Positions 16,940 to 53,666 of a DNA stretch of 64,000 bases are shown in pieces; the stretch's first letter is position 1, and each line of letters opens with the position of its first letter. The DNA lies in NCBI GenBank assembly GCA_050261235.1, contig JBLNDB010000096.1, positions 2,161-66,160 on the forward strand, in the 5' to 3' direction. Source of the stretch: Chloroflexota bacterium. Its GTDB lineage: Bacteria > Bacillota > Sulfobacillia > JBFLWA01 > JBLNDB01. The position numbers and the translations under genes were made by a program. The notes under the pieces were generated by a model, which saw nothing but the letters and a program-made list of their open reading frames with translations, did no database searches and was not told the DNA's origin.

Positions 16940-16974
16940 GATTGCGGAGCGATCCGCCAACCGAATAGAGTCAG

Positions 16975-17060
16975 GCCGCTAGGGGAGCTGCAAAGCTGAG
17001 ACGCGGGACACCGCAAACCCTTGGGACCCGAACTGGATAATACCAGCGTGGGGAAGTGGC
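16975..17060 (+). ncRNA. TPP (THI-box) riboswitch
   Basis: Carries the conserved THI-element blocks: CTAGGGGAGCTG...GCTGAGA...ACCC...GAACTGGATAATACCAGCGTGGGGAAG. It lies upstream of a ThiT-like ECF S-component gene. Confidence 0.8.
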
Positions 17061-17081
17061 GATCGATAACAAGACCGCAAA

Positions 17082-43714: not shown

Positions 43715-43796
43715 GTCGGAGTGGCGGAATTGGCAGACGCGTACGTTTGAGGGGCGTATGGAGGAATCCGTGCGGGTTCAAGTCCCGCCTCCGACA
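43715..43796 (+). tRNA. tRNA-Leu (anticodon GAG), copy 1
   Basis: Acceptor GTCGGAG/CTCCGAC, anticodon loop TT-GAG-GG, variable arm TGGAGGAATCCGT. A hairpin with T run follows. Confidence 0.9.
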
Positions 43797-43967
43797 CAAG
43801 AGTGCCTCCTCTTCCCGATTCGGGAAGAGGAGTCTTTTTCATTCCTGCGCCGCGGCAACGAGCTGCGGCGACTGAATTCTCCGCGCGGCGAGCGAGCCTG
43901 CAGGGGGAATCGCTACGTGGGGCGAACTATATCTCGCGGTACGGCAGCTGGCAGGAGGCATGGTCGC

Positions 43968-45356: not shown

Positions 45357-46916
45357 ATGAGTAAAGTTAACGCGGGTCGGCGCCTCTGAAAACAGGAACG
45401 AGACGGTTCCTCTCCGAAGGTGTAAGCGCCAACAAACACCCTAGGGAAGAGGGGACCCATCTCGTCATGGCGGATTTCAACGAACTCGTCGCAGTATCCT
45501 TCTCAGAGCTTGAAAGAACGCTGTTCGAAGGCTTGACCAAGTTGTTCCTCGAGGCCATGACGGAGCTGCTTTCAAGGCTTGATGCTCAGGTCGCTGGGAA
45601 GCGTGACAAGCAGCGGTATGTAATCGTTGAACGCAAGGAGACGTGCCTTGAAACCATGCTCGGGCCTTTGCGCTTCCGCCGGCGTGTTTACCTGGACCGG
45701 GAGACGGGAGAACGGGTCTACGGGCTGGACGAGGCGCTTGGACTGACGAAACGTGCCAGGGTGAGCCCGGGGCTGAAGGAAGCCGCAGTGAGGGAAGCCG
45801 TTGAGGCACCGTCGTACCGCGCGGCCCGGGACAGTCTCGAGCGCAGGCATGGCCAGCGGGTGATGAGCCACGAGACCATACGGCAGCTGACGCTGAAGAC
45901 CGGGAAGGAGATACAGCGTGCTGACGAGGCTCTGGCGCTTGAGCCCAATGGCGAGCGGAAGATCCCGGTGCTGTTCATCAAGGCGGATGGGCTGTACGTG
46001 TCAAGGCAGAAGGCAGGCAAGCGTGAAGAGCGGTTCGTCATAGCGCATGAAGGCTGGCAGCGCAGGAGCCCTGGCAGCGAAGAATACGAGCTCGTGAACA
46101 AGACGTACATACACTGCGACTCGGCCGGTGACGTCTGGGAGCAGGCGAGCCGGATGCTGTTCGCCAGATACGACCTCAGCGACACAGTTGTCGTCGTCAA
46201 TGGCGACCGCGCCAAGTGGATCCGCGAGGGAGTGCGGTACTTCCCGAAAGCCATCTACCAGTTTGACCGGTTCCATCTGCTGCGGGATGTCAAGGCGAAA
46301 CTCAGGCTGGCACCGCAGGCAAGGAAGGAAGTGCTCCAGGCTATACGTGACGGAAGGTCGCGGGATGTGCTCGATCTCATGCACAAGGTGAGACTCAGTG
46401 ACGGAAAGCTAAACGCGAGCTCGACGAACTGAGGCGCGACTTGCAGCGCTTTCCCGAGGCGATGGTGGACTACCGTGTGCGGCTGGCGATGATGGGCTTG
46501 GATACGGCCGGCATGCGAGGTATGGGCTCGGCTGAGTCCAACATGAACCACTTGGCGCGCCGACTGAGAAAGCAAGGCCGCAGCTGGTCCAGAAACGGCT
46601 TGAGAGCAATGATCCGGGTGATGATTAAGCTCTTCGAGGGCACGCTGCACCGCTTCACGCAGAGCCTGATGGACATCACGGAGCACCTGGATGCAGAGAT
46701 GCTGCTGACCGGCGCAGGCCGGATTGTGCAGGCGGCTCTGGACAAGGCGAGCTACGTCGCGGGCAAGACGTACCGGATGCCGATTCGACAAGCTGGAAGC
46801 AACGTGTCGCGTGGTCTCTCTGAGTTCATGAACCGTCTGAACCGAGCACTGCCGGCGCAGTTGGCCTAGCAGACCTCAAACGCAACACTTCGGGAAGGAA
46901 CGGCGCCGACCCGCGT
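45357..46916 (+). mobile_element. IS element, ISLre2 (UPF0236)-like, about 1.56 kb with imperfect terminal inverted repeats
   Basis: Left end TTAACGCGGGTCGGCGCC (about 45361-45378) is the reverse complement of the right end GGCGCCGACCCGCGTTTG (about 46897-46914). It encloses one transposase reading frame split in two. Confidence 0.6.
45467..46869 (+). pseudogene. ISLre2-family transposase interrupted by a single frameshift near 46415-46432
   Basis: ORF 45467-46432 (321 aa) and ORF 46441-46869 (142 aa) together make roughly 460 aa, the length of an ISLre2/UPF0236 transposase. The second frame reads through ...RKAKRELDELRRDLQRFPEAM... directly after an in-frame TGA. The break lies at GGAAAGC, consistent with a 1-nt indel in an A run. 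It is not a slippery heptamer. Confidence 0.65.
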
Positions 46917-46989: not shown

Positions 46990-47071
46990 GTCGGAGTGGC
47001 GGAATTGGCAGACGCGTACGTTTGAGGGGCGTATGGAGAAATCCGTGCGGGTTCAAGTCCCGCCTCCGACA
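46990..47071 (+). tRNA. tRNA-Leu (anticodon GAG), copy 2
   Basis: Identical to copy 1 except for one base in the variable arm (GGAGGAAT versus GGAGAAAT). It has its own promoter (TATCAT -10) and terminator hairpin (gcctcctccttctgctcgcagggggaggc). Confidence 0.9.
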
Positions 47072-47233
47072 CCGGTAAAGCCTCCTCCTTCTGCTCGCAG
47101 GGGGAGGCTTTTGCTTGCTCGACGGCTCGGCTGAAACCAGAAGCTCACCTGCGCTGTACTTGAATGGTCATGATTGTGCGTGACGCGGTCCGGAACCGCG
47201 CCGCTGGCAAAGCGGCGCAAGGGAGCGAGATCA

Positions 47234-48319
47234 ATGAGCGAAAACCAGTCGTTACTCGATTACCTCGACAGATCCATCGGCGCGTTGTTTCACGACGCCT
47301 GGCGCGTCACCGGCGGCAATCCGGCGCAGGCAGCTTTCTTCCTGAAAATGCTCCGCTGGCAGGAGCAGGCGGGGCGCACCCGTCGCAAGTGGGAAGCCGA
47401 GGGCGTCCACGTCCCGCCCTTCCTGATCGCCAGCATCACACATCGCTGCAACCTGCAGTGCGTCGGCTGCTATGCCCGGGCTCAGCACCGCCGGGATGAA
47501 CCCGAGCTCAGTCCGGACAAGTTCCGCAGCGTGCTCGGTGAGGCGAGCGAACTCGGCGTTGGCATGGTCCTGATCGCCGGCGGCGAGCCCCTGACCCGAC
47601 CCGAGCTGTTGTCGGTCTGCGTCGAGTACCCGCGGCTGATGTTCCCGCTGTTCACCAACGGGATGCTGATCGATGACCAGCGAGTCGCCTTTTTCAGGCG
47701 GCACCGCAATTTGATGCCGGTCATCAGCATCGAGGGCCACGCCGGCGAGACGGATGGCCGCCGCGGCGCGGGAGTCCACCAGCATGCACTGGCGTTGGCG
47801 CGGCGGCTCAAGTCCGAGGGTGTCGCGTTCGGGATGTCGTTGACCGTGACCGCCGCCAACTGCTCGACAGTCACGGACCGGTCGTTCATAAACGATCTCA
47901 TCGACCGCGGCTGCCGCCTGTTCTTCTTCGTCGAGTACGTTCCCGTTCAGGAGGGAACCGACGCGCTGGTCCTGGCAGCCGGACAGCGGCTCGCCTTGCG
48001 GGCCGCGGCGGCGGACTTCCGCGCCCGCCTGCCGGGGCTGTTCATCACCTTCCCCGGCGATGAAGAAGAGGCCGGTGGTTGTCTTGCCGCCGGTCGGGGC
48101 TTCGTTCACATCAGTCCGGCGGGGCGCGTCGAGCCGTGCCCATTCGCCCCATACTCCGACGCCAGCCTGACCGAGATGTCCTTGAAGGACGCGCTGCAGT
48201 CGAATCTGCTCAGCGCGATCCGCGCGAACCACGACCAACTTCGCGAGACCAGATCCGGGTGCGCGCTCTGGGAGAGACGCGACTGGGTCAGGACGCTGCT
48301 CCCCGGTGGCGGGGAATAA
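47234..48319 (+). CDS. Radical SAM enzyme (CxxxCxxC) with a C-terminal Cys-containing extension, possibly SPASM/twitch-like; function unknown
   Basis: Radical SAM cluster motif ITHRCNLQCVGCY, the GGEPL glycine-rich SAM motif, and C-terminal cysteines (GGCLAAG...VEPCPF...SGCALW). An N-terminal extension of about 60 aa precedes the core. The ATG at 47234 follows aagggag. Confidence 0.8.
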   Translation: MSENQSLLDYLDRSIGALFHDAWRVTGGNPAQAAFFLKMLRWQEQAGRTRRKWEAEGVHVPPFLIASITHRCNLQCVGCYARAQHRRDEPELSPDKFRSVLGEASELGVGMVLIAGGEPLTRPELLSVCVEYPRLMFPLFTNGMLIDDQRVAFFRRHRNLMPVISIEGHAGETDGRRGAGVHQHALALARRLKSEGVAFGMSLTVTAANCSTVTDRSFINDLIDRGCRLFFFVEYVPVQEGTDALVLAAGQRLALRAAAADFRARLPGLFITFPGDEEEAGGCLAAGRGFVHISPAGRVEPCPFAPYSDASLTEMSLKDALQSNLLSAIRANHDQLRETRSGCALWERRDWVRTLLPGGGE

Positions 48320-48332
48320 GCAGGAAGACAGG

Positions 48333-48369
48333 CCGGGATGCAGAAATATACTGCATCCCGGTTCCTTTT
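48333..48369 (+). terminator. Strong rho-independent terminator (ccgggatgcag-aaatatact-gcatcccgg then ttcctttt)
   Basis: An 11-bp perfect stem and a T-rich tract, 14 nt after the radical SAM stop codon. Confidence 0.75.
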
Positions 48370-48871
48370 AAGTCAAAAAGCAGGATATCGATCGCCCGGT
48401 TTTTCGTCATTCTTGCAGCTAGTCGCACTATTTCCGCCATTTGTCAGCACAAAGTTCGCCAAACTCGACACCGCTCAGAAGGATATCCGAGTGGCTGGGC
48501 GAATATTAGTCCTCACCAAAGCTTCGAAAAGTGTGCCATATGTGGACGGTGGCTAATTAGCCCAGATTGGTCAATACATGGATATGAATTCGAGTTCGGA
48601 GAGCTGGTCCCGGCGCGTTTGAGGTGATTGTTGAATGGATGCGCTCTATCGTCAGAAACGCACTTCTCAGCCAATCGCACCGCGTCGACAGACTCCGATT
48701 TTTGATTTGCCGAAAGGGGGGTGAGAACGGCAGGCCATGTGTAGGTCCACCGGACCGCTGGTCTTTGCCGGATCAGTCGAAAAGCCAGGAAGGCAGGCGG
48801 TACTCATCGTGTCACTGCTGACCCTGACTCCCACTCAGGTTTCCCGGAAGAACTAGGGAGGAGGTGCTTCC

Positions 48872-49654
48872 TTGACTCTGCTCGCCAAGAATCAGTCAAC
48901 CACGTTCATTCTCGAGCTCCTGTTCTGCATCGGGTTGTTGCTGATGATCTCCCGTGCACGCGCAGGCAAGAAGGTCCCTGAGATCCGTAAGGTCAATGGT
49001 CTCGACGCTCTCGACGAAGCCATTGGTCGCGCCACTGAAATGGGCCGGCCGGTGCACTACTCGCCGGGTATCGGTGACCTCTCGAACTCCCAGACCCTCG
49101 CTTCGTTCTCACTGCTGGCCTACGTCGCCCGCATGTGCGCGAAGTACGACACCCGCCTCATCGTCACCAGCCGTACCGTTACCGTTACGCCGGTCATGGA
49201 AGAAATCGTCAAGGCTGCTTACACCGACATGAACAAGGCGGACAACTACAACCCGAACGACGTCCGCTTCCTGTCTGACGACCAGTTCGGTTACGCCTCT
49301 GGTTGCGTCGGTATCATGCAGCGCGAACAGGTCGCGGCCAACATTCTGTTTGGTGCGTTCTGGGCCGAGTCGCTGATCTTCGCCGAAGTCGGTTCGCAGA
49401 GCGGCGCCATTCAGATCTCCGGTACCGCCAACACCGCGCAGATCCCGTTCTTCGTCGCGGCTTGCGACTACACCCTGCTCGGCGAGGAAATGTACGCCGC
49501 CAGCGCTTACCTGTCACGTGACCCGGTTCTCGTCGGTAACCTCGTCGGTCAGGACTGGGGCAAGTGGTTCGCTGCGGCCGTCATCGCCGTTGGCGCCATC
49601 CTCGCCACCATCAACCCGAAGTCCAATCCGCTGTCCACTTGGCTCCTGAAGTAA
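48872..49654 (+). CDS. Hypothetical bitopic membrane protein (N-terminal TM, extracytoplasmic domain of about 190 aa, C-terminal TM); cluster gene 1
   Basis: TTG start 7 nt after GGGAGGAGG. No recognisable family. The codon usage is NNT/NNC-biased and differs from the window average (frequent cgt, ggt, gct, tct, acc), and GC is lower. Confidence 0.65.
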   Translation: MTLLAKNQSTTFILELLFCIGLLLMISRARAGKKVPEIRKVNGLDALDEAIGRATEMGRPVHYSPGIGDLSNSQTLASFSLLAYVARMCAKYDTRLIVTSRTVTVTPVMEEIVKAAYTDMNKADNYNPNDVRFLSDDQFGYASGCVGIMQREQVAANILFGAFWAESLIFAEVGSQSGAIQISGTANTAQIPFFVAACDYTLLGEEMYAASAYLSRDPVLVGNLVGQDWGKWFAAAVIAVGAILATINPKSNPLSTWLLK

Positions 49655-49680
49655 CCCCGAGCGAACGGAGGTGAGACGTT

Positions 49681-50301
49681 TTGCGTAAAGAAATTCCGCT
49701 TCTCATCACTTTGCTGGCTGGTCTGATTTACGTCATTGCTAACTTCTTCAGCGTTCCCATCGCGACGTCGGCAAAGAACACCCTGGATAGCTGGTTCCTC
49801 ATTTCTCAGGCGTTCGCCGTTCTGCTTGGCGTAACCAACCTGACCCTGATCCATCTGCGCAGCATCTCAACCCGCCGCACGGGTTGGGGCTTCAGCGTCG
49901 CGCTTCTCGTCTCGATGTACACCGTCATGATCTACGGCGCGTTCAAGACCGCTACGGATCCGTTCTTCAACACCATCTTCTTCAAGTCCATGATCAACGC
50001 GCTGTCAGGCACTATGTTCTCCCTGCTCGTGTTCTACATCACGTCGGCTGCCTACCGCGCGTTCCGCATTCGCTCGTTCGAGGCCTCGCTGCTCCTCATC
50101 ACGGCAGTCATCATCATGCTCGGCCGTGCTCCGGTCGGCGACCTCATCTCGCCCTGGCTCCCGAAGGCCACTAGCTGGCTGCTCGACATCCTTAACGTTG
50201 CAGGTATGCGCGGCATTCAGATCGGCGCTGCTCTTGGCGGTATTGCCACCGCGTTGAGAGTCGTCGTCGGTATCGAGCGCGCCTACCTTGCCGGCGAGTA
50301 A
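49681..50301 (+). CDS. Hypothetical polytopic membrane protein (about 5 TM helices, 206 aa); cluster gene 2
   Basis: Hydrophobic helices read directly. No recognisable family. Same codon bias as gene 1. Confidence 0.65.
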   Translation: MRKEIPLLITLLAGLIYVIANFFSVPIATSAKNTLDSWFLISQAFAVLLGVTNLTLIHLRSISTRRTGWGFSVALLVSMYTVMIYGAFKTATDPFFNTIFFKSMINALSGTMFSLLVFYITSAAYRAFRIRSFEASLLLITAVIIMLGRAPVGDLISPWLPKATSWLLDILNVAGMRGIQIGAALGGIATALRVVVGIERAYLAGE

Positions 50302-50314
50302 GGGAGGTACACGC

Positions 50315-51148
50315 ATGAACTTCTTTGACAGACTGCAGAAGATCGACCGCCGTGTCCTCTACGTCCTCCTCGCGATCGTGGTCACCTACGCTACGATCAA
50401 GCCGATGGGTCTGCCGATCAAGATCGGTAAGGAAACCCAGCAGACCTACGATTTCATCAACAATCTGCCGGCCGGCAGCACCGTCGTTCTGATGTTCGAC
50501 TATGGCGCTGACGCCATGCCGGAACTCCACACCAACGCTCTGGCCATTGGCAAGCTGCTCTTCTCCAAGGGCCACAAGGTCATCGGCGCTGCCATGTGGA
50601 ACACCGGCTCCGGCATGCTGAACATGTTCTTTGAGACCATGACCAAGGAGTTCCCGAACCTCGTCGAAGGCACTGACTGGGTCAACGTCGGCTACAAGCC
50701 GGGTGGACAGGTCTGGGCAGAAAAGACGACTGTCGACTTCATCGAAGCCTGCGCCGGCGTTGACGCGAACGGCAAGCCGCTCGCCTCGATGCCGATCTTC
50801 CAGGGCATCAAGACCTCGGCTGACACCGACCTCTTCATCGACCTCGCGGCCGGCAACCCCGGCATCGAAGAGCTGATCAAGACCGTCGGCGCCAAGGGCA
50901 CCCCGATCATCGGCGCGGTTACCGCCGTTTCCATCACTGGTCAGCTGCCGGCCCTCCAAGCTGGTCTGATCAAGGGCCTGCAGATGGGTATGCGCGGCGC
51001 CGCCGAAATGGAGCTCCTCGTCAACCGTCCGGACAAGGCTATCGCTGGCATGGACGCTCAGTCCCTTAGCCACGTGCTTCTCATTCTCTTCATCCTGCTC
51101 GGCAACATCGGCTACCTGGCCACCAGGCAGTCGGGCGCTAAGCGTTAG
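50315..51148 (+). CDS. Hypothetical bitopic membrane protein, a distant paralog of cluster gene 1; cluster gene 3
   Basis: The ATG at 50315 follows AGGGAGG. Same layout as gene 1 (TM, globular domain, TM) with scattered colinear similarity: HYSPGIG/FDYGADA, FAEVGSQSGAIQISGTANTAQIPFF/FIDLAAGNPGIEELIKTVGAKGTPII. Confidence 0.65.
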   Translation: MNFFDRLQKIDRRVLYVLLAIVVTYATIKPMGLPIKIGKETQQTYDFINNLPAGSTVVLMFDYGADAMPELHTNALAIGKLLFSKGHKVIGAAMWNTGSGMLNMFFETMTKEFPNLVEGTDWVNVGYKPGGQVWAEKTTVDFIEACAGVDANGKPLASMPIFQGIKTSADTDLFIDLAAGNPGIEELIKTVGAKGTPIIGAVTAVSITGQLPALQAGLIKGLQMGMRGAAEMELLVNRPDKAIAGMDAQSLSHVLLILFILLGNIGYLATRQSGAKR

Positions 51149-51162
51149 GAGGTGACACGACC

Positions 51163-51789
51163 TTGACAATGGAACAAGTCGGCGTTTGGATCGCCGCTGC
51201 TCTGACCCTGGCTCTCTACAGCTTCCTGTGGAAAGAGAACCCGGTCTATCGTCTGGCTGAGTACCTCTACGTCGGTATGGCTGCCGGTTACGGCGTCGTC
51301 GTCACCATCGACAGCTATATCCGCCCGACGATCAAGAACGACCTGATGACCGATGGCAAGTGGCTGCTCCTGATCCCGATCTGCCTCGGTCTCCTGGCCT
51401 ACGCCCGTTTCGTCAAGCCGATCGCGTTCCTCGCCCGCTGGACGATGGCGTTCTGGCTCGGCGTCGGCGCCGGTATGGTTCTGACCCGTGACTTCCGCCC
51501 GCAGTTCATCGTCGCGTTGACCGCTACCTTCAAGCCGCTCTTCGTGGCCGGTAAGGTCGGCGTCAGCATCAACAACATCCTGCTCGTCGTCGGTGTCATC
51601 ACCTCCCTGATGTACTTCTTCTTCACCACGAAGCGCACCGGCATCATGGCCGGTGGTGCGAAGATCGGTCGCTGGGTGATGATGGTCGCCTTCGGCGCTG
51701 CCTTCGGCAACACCGTTATGGCCCGCGTCTCGCTCTTCCTCGGCCGCATGCAGTTCCTGCTCATCGACTGGCTCAAGGTCGTCAAGTAG
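51163..51789 (+). CDS. Hypothetical polytopic membrane protein (about 6 TM helices, 208 aa), a probable counterpart of cluster gene 2; cluster gene 4
   Basis: TTG start 7 nt after GGAGGTGA. Intergenic gaps are tight (13-26 nt), implying one operon together with genes 1-3. Confidence 0.65.
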   Translation: MTMEQVGVWIAAALTLALYSFLWKENPVYRLAEYLYVGMAAGYGVVVTIDSYIRPTIKNDLMTDGKWLLLIPICLGLLAYARFVKPIAFLARWTMAFWLGVGAGMVLTRDFRPQFIVALTATFKPLFVAGKVGVSINNILLVVGVITSLMYFFFTTKRTGIMAGGAKIGRWVMMVAFGAAFGNTVMARVSLFLGRMQFLLIDWLKVVK

Positions 51790-51953
51790 GCATTGCAATC
51801 AGGGACTCGCTGGACGGCTCCCCTCACGGGGAGCCGTCTTTCTTTCGCCCGCGACCGGTGCTGCGGTATGCAGATGTCTCGCAGCAGGGGTCGCGCCGCC
51901 GGACGGCGAAGCCCATCTCCGGTGATGACCCATCCGAACTGGGGGAAACGAGC

Positions 51954-52757
51954 GTGAGCAAGCAGCCGATTGGCTTTTTCGATTCCGGCCTCGGCGGTCT
52001 GACGGTCGCGCGGGCTGTCAGTGAACTGCTGCCGGGCGAGGACCTTGTCTACATCGGCGATTCCGGACGCTGCCCGTACGGACCACGCCCGGCTGACGAG
52101 GTCAGGCGCTTCAGCCTGCAGATTCTCGACCGTCTGGCCGCTGAGCACGTCAAGCTGGCGATCGTTGCCTGCAATACGGCCACCGCTGCCCTGATGGCCG
52201 CCTGGCCGACCGCCTACCCGTTTCCGGTGCTGGGCGTCATCGGTCCCGGCGCCCGCGCTGCGGTGGCTGCAACCCGCACCGGCCGGATCGGGCTGATTGC
52301 AACCGAGGGAACGGTGAGAAGCGGCGCCTATGCGCAGGCCATCAGCGAACTGAATGGCGATGCGCAGGTGTTCGGCCAGGGCTGTCCCAAATTCGTCGCA
52401 GCGGTCGAAGCCGGCCTCAGCCAATGGGCGCCGGAAGTCGTCGCGGCCGCCCGGGAGTACATCAGGCCGCTGCTCGGTCAGGGCATCGACACGCTGATCC
52501 TCGGCTGCACGCACTTCCCGCACCTTGCCGGCGTAATCGGCCAGGTCGCCGGTCCGGGCGTGACGCTGGTCGACCCGGCGGGAGAGGTCGCGGCCGAGGC
52601 CCGGAGCCTGCTGGCTGCCGCCGGCCAACTTGCGCCAGCCGACGGCCGGGCCCCGCTCCGGCGCTTCTACACAAGCGGCGACCCCGAGGTGTTCGTGAAA
52701 CTGGGCAATGTCCTCTGGCCGGACGGGGTCCCGGACTGCCAGCAAATCGCATTCTGA
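51954..52757 (+). CDS. murI: Glutamate racemase
   Basis: Signatures PIGFFDSGLGGLTV, ACNTAT and the GCTHFP catalytic cysteine motif. The track ORF begins at 51858, but a GTG near 51954 gives the canonical N-terminus. My reading of the printed bases around 51890-51905 is one base out of register with the track translation, so this coordinate carries that uncertainty. Confidence 0.75.
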   Translation: MSKQPIGFFDSGLGGLTVARAVSELLPGEDLVYIGDSGRCPYGPRPADEVRRFSLQILDRLAAEHVKLAIVACNTATAALMAAWPTAYPFPVLGVIGPGARAAVAATRTGRIGLIATEGTVRSGAYAQAISELNGDAQVFGQGCPKFVAAVEAGLSQWAPEVVAAAREYIRPLLGQGIDTLILGCTHFPHLAGVIGQVAGPGVTLVDPAGEVAAEARSLLAAAGQLAPADGRAPLRRFYTSGDPEVFVKLGNVLWPDGVPDCQQIAF

Positions 52758-52856: not shown

Positions 52857-53666
52857 CTAGAGCCCGCATGCCATCAGGACGGGTCGGTCATCGCCGTCAC
52901 TCAGTTGCATGCTACCAAGGTCGCGGAGCTCGCGGAACCCCCGCCTGGCGAAGAAGCTCGCCGGGCCGTTGGGAAACGGCGTCCGCCGGCCGGCGACGAC
53001 GAGCACTCGCCGGTACCCCTGGCGCGGCAGGTCCGTCAGCAAGCGGTCGAGCAGCGCGCCCCGATAGTCCGGCTGCCGCGTCGGGTAGATGCACGTGATG
53101 AAGGCGTCATCCCGGGCGGCGACGCGCAGTGGATAGGGCACGTCAGACGCCGGCAGGACCTCGACGGCCGCCACCGGCTGCCCGCCGGCGTAGGCGATGT
53201 ACCCAAGCGCCGCTGTCGGCGTCCGGGCTTCGCGATCGGCCAGCCAATCCATCTTGAGGCTGCACCCTGCGCCTGCGGGCGCATTGCAGAGAACGCATGT
53301 ATCGCCGCTGTTCGCGGCAGTCAGCAGGTCGATCCGCTCCGACTGTGCCTCCACTGCCGACCCGCCGGCCTCGCTCTCTTCCGGGCCATCCGCCCCGCCG
53401 TCGCCGGCGTCCTCGACCGGCGGTGAGTTGACAAGCCGCGTCAGAGTGGCGGCCCGCAGCGGCGCCGAGACGCGGATGCGATCGTCGATGATCGTCAGGA
53501 ACGGGGCGAAGAGCCCGTGCTTGTCGGCAATCTCAGGGCGACCCGTGACGTCCCTGACCGCGACCGTACCGCCAAGTTCCGCGGCTGCCTGACGGGCCTG
53601 ATCGACTACCCAGGGCAACCATGGGCACTGTCCACCGAAGTGCAGAACCAAGACGCTGTGTGGCAT
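52857..53666 (-). CDS. Fusion protein: thioredoxin-like/ArsC-like N-terminal domain plus C-terminal GNAT acetyltransferase
   Basis: N-terminal CPW-containing thioredoxin-like fold (VLVLHFGGQCPWLPW), an acidic linker, and a C-terminal GNAT motif (RRVLVVAGRR...NGPASFFARRGF). Confidence 0.6.
   Translation of the reverse strand: MPHSVLVLHFGGQCPWLPWVVDQARQAAAELGGTVAVRDVTGRPEIADKHGLFAPFLTIIDDRIRVSAPLRAATLTRLVNSPPVEDAGDGGADGPEESEAGGSAVEAQSERIDLLTAANSGDTCVLCNAPAGAGCSLKMDWLADREARTPTAALGYIAYAGGQPVAAVEVLPASDVPYPLRVAARDDAFITCIYPTRQPDYRGALLDRLLTDLPRQGYRRVLVVAGRRTPFPNGPASFFARRGFRELRDLGSMQLSDGDDRPVLMACGL

Follow-up and report, generated by a model that had tools for sequence, protein, structure and literature searches.

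The window analysed here, a stretch of DNA of 64,000 nucleotides, contains a tightly packed block of four genes for membrane proteins, and the question raised by this locus is whether the block encodes a system of its own and what such a system would do. The features of the locus are the following, with the four genes designated G1 to G4.

47174-48319: Radical_SAM gene, upstream neighbour
48331..48363, + strand: intrinsic terminator of the upstream radical-SAM gene and 5' limit of the operon (13-bp stem, then T-run)
48410..48530, + strand: conserved DNA block, candidate promoter/operator region, near-identical in related loci
48855..48866, + strand: extended Shine-Dalgarno of G1, AGGGAGGAGGTG, read in the sequence
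48872..49654, + strand: G1, 260 aa, bitopic, Pfam DUF6754
49681..50301, + strand: G2, 206 aa, polytopic, about 6 TM helices
50315..51148, + strand: G3, 277 aa, bitopic
51163..51789, + strand: G4, 208 aa, polytopic, about 6 TM helices
51812..51839, + strand: intrinsic terminator at the operon end (12-bp stem with 9 GC pairs, then T-run)
51858-52757: Asp/Glu racemase, next gene downstream

The four genes are co-oriented on the + strand, with spacings of 26, 13 and 14 nt between the ORF calls, and public gene calls on the same DNA give proteins of 260, 206, 277 and 208 aa for G1, G2, G3 and G4. Each gene is preceded by a strong Shine-Dalgarno sequence, read as AGGGAGGAGGTG, GGAGGTG, GGGAGG and AGGAGGTG, respectively, and no intrinsic terminator occurs on the + strand within the block. 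The four genes form one operon. The gene coordinates, the packing at 13-26 nt and the strong Shine-Dalgarno of each gene, as given by a first-pass annotation, were all seen in the sequence.

The leader upstream of G1 has about 500 nt and houses the candidate promoter/operator block, which occurs once in the window and is near-identical in loci L093, L094 and L096, about 350-450 nt 5' of the same cassette. The block is missing from relatives of 81-83% identity, where the spacers are shorter, and the Shine-Dalgarno of G1 is the only upstream element kept with more distant relatives. A riboswitch or sRNA is unsupported: the leader has no Rfam match and the conserved block no RNA-structure signal (z = -0.04).

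G1 belongs to DUF6754 over its full length and with a high score. Its match to the Pfam profile (PF20539) reaches 324.7 bits, where the cut-off is 27 (E = 4.2e-97), and covers profile positions 7-250 of 257, and the same domain is present in 120 of the 120 G1 homologues listed. The Pfam entry covers one of the four subunits and is silent on the four-gene system, its topology and its partners, and literature searches with DUF6754/PF20539, PF13941 and context terms returned nothing relevant. The protein has a short N-terminus outside the cell, followed by a TM helix, a basic patch, a cytoplasmic Rossmann-like alpha/beta domain and a C-terminal TM helix. In this domain a Gly-rich loop follows beta-1, and Cys, His and acidic residues are conserved. 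In diderm lineages G1 carries an extra secreted N-terminal domain, while its cytoplasmic part is constant.

No family match was found for G2, G3 or G4 as single sequences in Pfam, NCBIfam, PHROGs or PADLOC, and a Pfam scan at E <= 1 of 47-51 orthologues of each gave inconsistent noise only. The first-pass annotation could match none of the four to a family known to it; this holds for these three and not for G1. In particular, none of 51 G3-family proteins matches PF20539 even at E <= 1. Profile searches of all PDB sequences at E <= 10 with the four families returned nothing credible.

G3 consists of an N-terminus with a conserved D-R-R, a TM helix, a Rossmann-like alpha/beta domain, a C-terminal TM helix in which His253 and Asn264 are conserved, and a basic tail. 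From the positive-inside rule, its N-terminus and tail are predicted to be cytoplasmic and its domain extracytoplasmic. The domains of proteins 1 and 3 had both been placed outside the cell by the first-pass annotation; this agrees with the prediction for G3 and is wrong for G1, whose globular domain is cytoplasmic. Some G3 proteins contain insertions, the cytoplasmic part of the system remaining constant. One G3 variant has a repeat insert of about 550 aa, Ig/CARDB-like by eye, with no relative in the PDB. A weak PDB profile match of G3 to glutamate racemase (E = 0.07) was judged a beta-alpha-beta coincidence.

The polytopic nature of G2 and G4, previously put at 5-6 helices, is borne out, with about six TM helices each. 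G2 has a conserved AAYRAFR motif and is predicted to be N-in/C-in by the positive-inside rule (K+R 9.0 vs 4.1). G4 has in addition an amphipathic tail, a conserved acidic residue in TM2 (Glu33) and a weak hint of an internal repeat (HHalign E = 6e-4, 29% probability). It is predicted to be N-out, as loops 1, 3 and 5 have 6.6 K+R vs 2.0 in the N-side loops, the tail being excluded.

The AlphaFold2 models of G1 and G3 have a common layout (TM helix, helix, six beta-alpha units, TM helix) and a generic Rossmann-like fold, with an alpha/beta domain of about 200 aa between the N- and C-terminal TM helices. The arrangement of TM helix, globular domain and TM helix proposed earlier for both proteins is confirmed. 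Paralogy was evaluated by BLASTP and HHalign with about 95-105 orthologues per family, half-protein comparisons included. The BLASTP values (E = 6.9 and 0.67) are not significant, nor are those of HHalign for G1 vs G3 (E = 0.033, 1.5% probability) or for a second comparison, which was out of register (E = 0.009, 4.6% probability). The "patchy colinear similarity" noted at first between proteins 1 and 3 is therefore not significant. Since Rossmann-like folds are ubiquitous and the profile comparison is insignificant, the paralogy of G1 and G3 is not demonstrable, and G2 and G4 have only size and helix count in common. Moreover, the members of each putative pair are predicted to be oppositely oriented, which argues against the plain duplication in tandem of one module with a single orientation. 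Of the two paralogous pairs suggested before, what stands is the common architecture and fold class of G1 and G3; sequence paralogy is demonstrable for neither pair. The KTN domains of the Trk/Ktr K+ uptake systems (KTN/RCK), being minimal Rossmann folds, are matched by any query of this kind. G1 lacks the GxGxxG motif and is not a member of this family (TrkA_N). In addition, the cassette has no TrkH/KtrB-type partner, G1 is membrane-integral and one of the two domains is predicted outside the cell.

The order 1-2-3-4 is kept in 77 of 85 related loci with at least a dozen phylum-level labels, so the block is co-conserved. At least 580 loci were confirmed among species-representative genomes. 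The carriers are hundreds of bacterial species, mostly uncultured and patchy over a dozen or more phyla; they include degraders that are dominant in anaerobic digesters, sediments and sponges but uncultured, and the culturable Symbiobacterium thermophilum. Several divergent copies per genome are common, and two cassettes lie within 7 kb in 16 of 80 loci. DUF6754 comprises more than 6,500 clusters at 90% identity and the G3 family 5,272 clusters at 50% identity. Across phyla the identity of the subunits is 35-50%. It decreases from G1 (49%), the most conserved, over G2 (42%) and G4 (41%) to G3 (34%), the least conserved, and the same order is found between paralogous copies. No natural fusions between subunits occur among the 385 proteins retrieved. 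Most carriers belong to non-sporulating phyla, which makes a role specific to sporulation unlikely.

The four-gene cassette is a genuine, widespread and undescribed system: no paper mentions it, it is named in no source, and no characterised or solved relative was found, in line with the first-pass annotation. Since the gene order is kept in 77 of the 85 loci over many phyla, the four products are very probably subunits of one conserved complex of the cytoplasmic membrane, which supports the hetero-oligomer suggested previously. The close packing of the genes points indirectly to the same.

The likeliest function of this complex is nutrient uptake, namely the import of amino acids or small peptide-derived solutes, a tentative reading of less than even confidence. 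G2 and G4 would form the membrane core. On the outer face G3 would expose its Rossmann-like domain, anchored by TM helices at both ends, and on the cytoplasmic face G1 its more conserved one, anchored likewise. The fast-evolving outer domain of G3 would capture or select the substrate, and G2/G4 would provide the pathway, possibly ion-coupled via the membrane-embedded Glu33 (G4) and His253/Asn264 (G3). The constrained inner domain of G1 would bind a nucleotide or phospho-ligand, or act on the incoming substrate, and would drive or gate the cycle. Transporters that differ in specificity typically occur, as the cassette does, in several divergent copies per genome, and the low conservation of G3 is what would be predicted if specificity lay in the outward-facing part. 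The varying extracytoplasmic additions to a constant cytoplasmic part also count for uptake.

The genomic context points weakly in the same direction. In Bacillota, the flanks of the cassette contain peptidases M20, M55, S58 and C26 and asparaginase II. In FCB-type loci the order is gcvT-gcvH-gcvPA-gcvPB-...-cassette-TonB-dependent receptor-ExbB-ExbD, so that the cassette has a system of amino-acid catabolism on one side and an importer of the outer membrane on the other. The contexts elsewhere also include a GlmL-like ATPase module, itself uncharacterised, and the GlmL-like gene is the only strongly recurrent neighbour (16 of 134 neighbours). The context signal is lineage-specific, and in the window itself there are no functional neighbours around the cassette. 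PTS-related neighbours were seen in L001/L002 and are not recurrent.

Against uptake, no subunit resembles a known transporter, channel or binding-protein family in sequence or fold, and the cassette contains no ATPase or obvious energy-coupling motif. Like the TRAP (DctPQM) and TTT (TctABC) transporters, the system is multi-subunit, lacks an ATPase, combines a (predicted) extracytoplasmic alpha/beta domain with polytopic subunits, often occurs in several copies per genome and lies near catabolic genes. However, the outer domain of G3 is a single Rossmann-like lobe on two TM helices and not a two-lobed soluble binding protein, the conserved cytoplasmic-domain subunit G1 has no counterpart in TRAP or TTT, and none of the four subunits matches the DctP, DctQ, DctM or TctA/B/C families in Pfam or NCBIfam. 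An ABC or ECF transporter is not indicated either: the four proteins have no ABC_tran or P-loop match in Pfam or NCBIfam, and in 77 of 85 loci the cassette has four genes and no more, none of them for an ATPase. The mannose-type PTS families EII-Sor and EIID-AGA gave no match. Rossmann-like domains on both faces are uncommon among transporters and would fit an enzyme or a redox/energy complex just as well.

A bolder and rather doubtful version of the complex is a new class of machine made of two two-subunit modules that are mutually upside-down. G1 (N-out, domain inside) with G2 (N-in) would be mirrored by G3 (N-in, domain outside) with G4 (N-out), giving a pseudo-symmetric core with one Rossmann-like domain per membrane face. 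In a third of the genomes it would work with a partner set, likewise uncharacterised, of two small membrane proteins, an NqrA_N-like protein and a GlmL-like ATPase of the actin fold. The machine would be a major system, overlooked so far, for nutrient uptake or energy coupling in anaerobic heterotrophs that are uncultured, among them Zixibacteria, WOR-3, Cloacimonadota, Fermentibacteria, Poribacteria and Symbiobacterium/Limnochordia-like Bacillota.

An ion-translocating energy-converting or redox-linked complex, with an architecture like that of Rnf/Na+-NQR or transhydrogenase, is unlikely. In Rnf and Na+-NQR, the small subunits RnfA/RnfE and NqrD/NqrE have 6 TM helices, and their conserved intramembrane cysteines hold an Fe-S centre between the two. 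NqrC/RnfG is anchored on the outer side and NqrF on the inner side, whereas NqrA/RnfC is peripheral. The likeness of the cassette is one of architecture only: two 6-TM subunits of about 200 aa, predicted in opposite orientation, would form an ion path, and of the one anchored domain per face, the cytoplasmic one of G1 would bind NAD(P)(H) or another nucleotide. Some cassette genomes also encode an adjacent protein with a weak N-terminal domain of the NqrA_N/RnfC_N type. On the other hand, Pfam and the PDB link none of the cassette proteins by sequence to an Rnf/Nqr subunit, and the cassette lacks flavin or Fe-S motifs and a large NqrB/RnfD-like subunit, and G1 and G3 are anchored at both ends. 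G2 and G4 have no Rnf-Nqr match in Pfam, weak matches across 47+47 orthologues included, their profiles find no Nqr/Rnf chain in the PDB at E <= 10, and no Cys is conserved among their invariant or near-invariant columns.

Quite unlikely is also a machine for envelope biogenesis or export, in which a glycosyltransferase-like or ligase-like G1 would act on a substrate that is polymeric or linked to a lipid, G2/G4 would carry this substrate across the membrane and the outer G3 would hand it on. It is suggested by the GT-B half-domains among the fold matches of both domains (MurG, heptosyltransferase, LpxB, UGTs and BshA/MshA/PimA), and by the FN3-like or Ig-like extracytoplasmic additions on G1 and G3 in some lineages. 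Furthermore, the next gene is a glutamate racemase in the window and in one close relative, and M23 and M50 peptidases lie downstream in other close relatives.

The codon usage and the lower GC noted for the block are real. The GC content is 0.57-0.62 across the block vs about 0.65-0.70 in the flanks, and T at four-fold sites amounts to 0.18-0.22 vs 0.083 +/- 0.024 (maximum 0.147) in 31 other genes. Compared with the other genes, the cassette is rich in CGT (31% vs 9%), GGT (39% vs 13%) and GCT (29% vs 8%) and poor in CGG (3% vs 28%), and rare Arg/Gly codons account for 3% vs 32%. Its two-fold sites are more C-biased than those of host genes (TAC 0.90 vs 0.73, GAC 0.88 vs 0.67) and its ENC is 32.8 vs 37.5. 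Of the two explanations offered at first, translational selection for high expression fits this anomaly better than foreign origin. The avoidance of rare codons, the C preference, the ENC and the strong Shine-Dalgarno sequences indicate that the operon is probably strongly expressed in this lineage, including this organism. The anomaly is common to two close relatives with syntenic neighbours. It is not family-wide, the high codon bias being absent in relatives of 81-83% identity, and a cross-phylum test on 51 loci, with ENC corrected for GC3, gave no significant result (p = 0.18), which limits the high-expression inference to this sub-clade.

That the cassette is a recently acquired mobile island with the GC and codons of its donor genome is highly improbable: such an origin would be compatible with the GC below the flanks, the distinct codons, a broken UPF0236 transposase and a duplicated tRNA-Leu 2-5 kb upstream, and the patchy distribution, but the C-bias at two-fold sites and the avoidance of host rare codons are a signature of translational selection rather than of a donor with lower GC, some of the decrease in GC falls at codon position 1 and reflects membrane-protein amino-acid composition, the cassette has no PHROG or PADLOC match and no relatives on 72,556 plasmids or 50,697 phage records, and the same signature with the same neighbours (MFS_3, radical SAM) occurs in relatives of 86-89% protein identity, which marks the locus as an old resident.

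Three of the four subunits (G2-G4) are absent from Pfam and NCBIfam despite the large size of their families. The PDB offers no precedent for this architecture, in which each face has a Rossmann-like domain that is anchored twice and the subunits may be paired in inverted orientation. The culturable S. thermophilum offers a way into experiments on the cassette. If the complex is the carriers' main route of amino-acid or peptide uptake, or a new energy-coupling device, metabolic reconstructions of the carrier phyla would miss a central component.

The four genes of the cassette occupy the positions proposed in the first-pass annotation, which agree with an ORF search and with the public gene calls for this stretch.

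Features of the cassette and its flanks (protein lengths from the public gene call of the same DNA)
48331-48363, + strand, strong intrinsic terminator that closes the upstream radical-SAM gene
48872-49654, + strand, gene 1 (product G1, 260 aa)
49681-50301, + strand, gene 2 (product G2, 206 aa)
50315-51148, + strand, gene 3 (product G3, 277 aa)
51163-51789, + strand, gene 4 (product G4, 208 aa)
51812-51839, + strand, intrinsic terminator 3' of gene 4

The genes are 26, 13 and 14 nt apart and are preceded in turn by the strong Shine-Dalgarno sequences AGGGAGGAGGTG, GGAGGTG, GGGAGG and AGGAGGTG; TTG is the start codon of three of them. No + strand terminator was found between the two flanking ones, so the four genes make up one discrete transcription unit. 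Its leader is about 500 nt long, and the Shine-Dalgarno sequence of gene 1 is the only leader element kept in more distant relatives. A block of about 115 nt (48410-48530), near-identical in four sub-clade loci and each time 5' of the cassette, is probably its promoter/operator region. The conservation of this block exceeds that of coding DNA; it matched nothing in Rfam and showed no sign of RNA structure.

G1 is a full-length member of Pfam DUF6754 (PF20539, E = 4e-97), a domain of unknown function. That the first-pass annotation could match none of the proteins to a known family thus needs correcting for G1 but stands for G2, G3 and G4, which have no match in Pfam, NCBIfam, PHROGs or PADLOC; scanning Pfam at E <= 1 with 47-51 orthologues per protein returned inconsistent noise only. 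Homologues are named nothing beyond 'hypothetical' or 'DUF6754 domain-containing' in all sources, and a literature search for DUF6754 and PF20539 found no paper mentioning either. The family profiles of G1-G4 have no relative among all PDB sequences. The architecture is without counterpart in the PDB, and none of the four subunits has a relative that is characterised or of solved structure.

The cassette is kept as a block in other genomes. With one genome per species scanned, at least 580 related loci are confirmed, and all four genes stand in the order 1-2-3-4 at 77 of the 85 loci examined, the others being mostly broken off by contig ends. There is strong support for the four proteins forming one membrane complex, which is highly probable. 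The carriers are labelled as Bacillota (including Symbiobacterium and Fermentithermobacillaceae), Zixibacteria, WOR-3, Cloacimonadota, Poribacteria, Eisenbacteria, Fermentibacteria/Aegiribacteria, Planctomycetota, Ignavibacteria, Stahlbacteria, Coatesbacteria, Edwardsbacteria and Vulcanimicrobiota. Two cassettes lie at most 7 kb apart at 16 of 80 loci, and the G3 family comprises 5,272 clusters at 50% identity. Median identity to the window proteins is 49% for G1, 42% for G2, 41% for G4 and 34% for G3, an order also observed between paralogous copies within one genome. In the source record the organism is labelled 'Chloroflexota bacterium'; the closest cassette relatives, however, have GerA/GerAC/spore-permease and SpoIVF-like M23/M50 genes next to them and the more distant ones belong to Bacillota, and the label may be wrong.

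The 15 residues past TM1 of G1 carry on average 4.7 K+R versus 0.7 D+E, which predicts a cytoplasmic domain. In 62 of 111 G1 orthologues, essentially from diderm phyla, a signal-peptide-like start is followed by an extra beta-rich domain of ~100-150 aa that begins with a conserved D-x-P-N-D-x-G, and the TM helix and DUF6754 come after; Bacillota, including the window, lack it. This domain is FN3-like in appearance (carriers among loci L022-L098, e.g. L097 9227-10465). Because a single TM helix separates the secreted domain from DUF6754, the latter is placed inside the cell; together with the charges, this contradicts the extracytoplasmic location first judged most likely for protein 1. The G3 domain, on the other hand, is predicted to lie outside from a conserved D-R-R ahead of TM1 and a basic tail past TM2 (3.5 K+R versus 0.6 D+E). 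Long G3 variants contain repeat or helical inserts, all at one surface site of this outer domain. Among the large variants (P0269, P0263, P0335, P0329, P0301) are proteins with ~550 aa of Ig/CARDB-like repeats, with helical inserts, with the whole domain duplicated in tandem, or with an extra C-terminal TM and an extracellular tail. G2 is predicted N-in (K+R 9.0 versus 4.1) and G4 N-out, since its loops 1, 3 and 5 carry more K+R (6.6 versus 2.0). The orientations predicted from sequence are out/out for G1 and G4 and in/in for G2 and G3, so that G3+G4 would be the inverted image of G1+G2.

The common layout proposed for proteins 1 and 3 is borne out, because their AlphaFold2 models (G1, pLDDT 81; G3, pLDDT 92.8, pTM 0.87) show the same element order: TM helix, one helix, six beta-alpha units, TM helix. 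Foldseek gave no match at E <= 1e-3, the best matches being engineered GPCR fusions. The two paralogous pairs of the first-pass annotation are not demonstrable by sequence. BLASTP between the putative partners gives E = 6.9 and 0.67, and no G3 homologue matches the DUF6754 profile. HHalign profiles of ~100 orthologues per family align G1 with G3 at E = 0.033 (1.5% probability), in register with predicted secondary structure, as any two Rossmann-like domains could, and G2 with G4 at E = 0.009 (4.6% probability), out of register. If paralogous, the pairs would be topologically inverted, which recasts the duplication idea.

The neighbourhood in the window is uninformative on function: a PD40 protein, tRNA-Leu, an MFS_3 transporter, a broken UPF0236 transposase, a second tRNA-Leu and the radical-SAM gene lie upstream, and an Asp/Glu racemase, a gene of unassigned function and ArsP/ArsR downstream. 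An ORF downstream of the racemase gene (52857-53666, - strand, 269 aa) has no Pfam family. The tRNA-Leu(GAG) copies (43715-43797 and 46990-47072) are 99% identical and 3,275 bp apart; with the MFS_3 gene and the transposase (two ORFs, 45467-46432 and 46441-46869) between them, they look like a duplication or insertion scar. In L093, a locus of 89% identity, MFS_3 is immediately 5' of the cassette leader. A TPP riboswitch (16971-17071; 71 bits, above gathering threshold) is unrelated to the cassette.

In other genomes just one neighbour recurs strongly, a PF13941 GlmL-like actin-fold ATPase (16/134 sampled neighbours, 16/45 fully flanked loci), scoring far under the NCBIfam equivalog cut-offs. 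It travels with protein c2 (weak RnfC_N/NqrA_N calls; a very large family, with at least 8,000 matches) and the small membrane proteins c1 and c3, a second conserved gene set with no member of assigned function. The set adjoins the cassette in about one third of genomes (e.g. L012 10073-13257, L073 2725-6460, L097 5362-9122); the ATPase has ~620 aa, and c2 has ~375-470 aa with the weak calls at its N-terminus and a KOW-like C-terminus. Bacillota loci have peptidases M20, M55, S58 and C26 and asparaginase II nearby. The FCB-type order is gcvT-gcvH-gcvPA-gcvPB-(lplA)-c1-c3-GlmL-like-c2, then G1-G2-G3-G4-(lplA)-TonB-dependent receptor-ExbB-ExbD. The 64-kb window contains none of these partner genes. 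In the FCB-type loci L097, L098 and L099 the GlmL-like/c2 set is directly 3' of a complete glycine-cleavage operon, often with lplA. L099 has the gcv-to-c2 stretch without the cassette, so the main tie of this accessory set may be to glycine metabolism.

A solute importer for amino acids or peptide-derived nutrients is tentatively favoured, because genomes often carry several diverged copies, the subunit facing outward evolves fastest, the additions on the extracytoplasmic side vary, and the cassette is flanked by genes for outer-membrane uptake on one side and for amino-acid catabolism on the other. An Rnf/NQR-like ion-translocating or nucleotide-linked energy complex would share the architecture, but sequence and motif tests on the cassette proteins fail, and this reading appears unlikely. 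An envelope-biogenesis or export machine ranks below it as rather improbable.

The codon anomaly noticed at first is real: T at four-fold sites reaches 0.18-0.22, against 0.083 +/- 0.024 in other genes, rare Arg/Gly codons fall to ~3% (versus ~32%), GAA rises to 0.55 (versus 0.29) and ENC is 32.8, 12 below the GC3 expectation (pooled other genes: 37.5, 5.5 below). Relatives with 89% and 86% G1 identity have the same signature and the same MFS_3 and radical-SAM neighbours; 81-83% relatives lack the signature, and a cross-phylum test (p = 0.18) indicates that it is not family-wide. Of the two causes first offered, foreign DNA is very improbable, since C is favoured at two-fold sites more strongly than in host genes, the reverse of the imprint expected from a lower-GC donor, relatives with the same neighbours share the signature, and plasmid and phage searches found no relative. 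Lineage-specific translational selection, that is high expression, would explain the codon usage better. Judged from its genes and predicted structures, the four-subunit system would fit no known kind.
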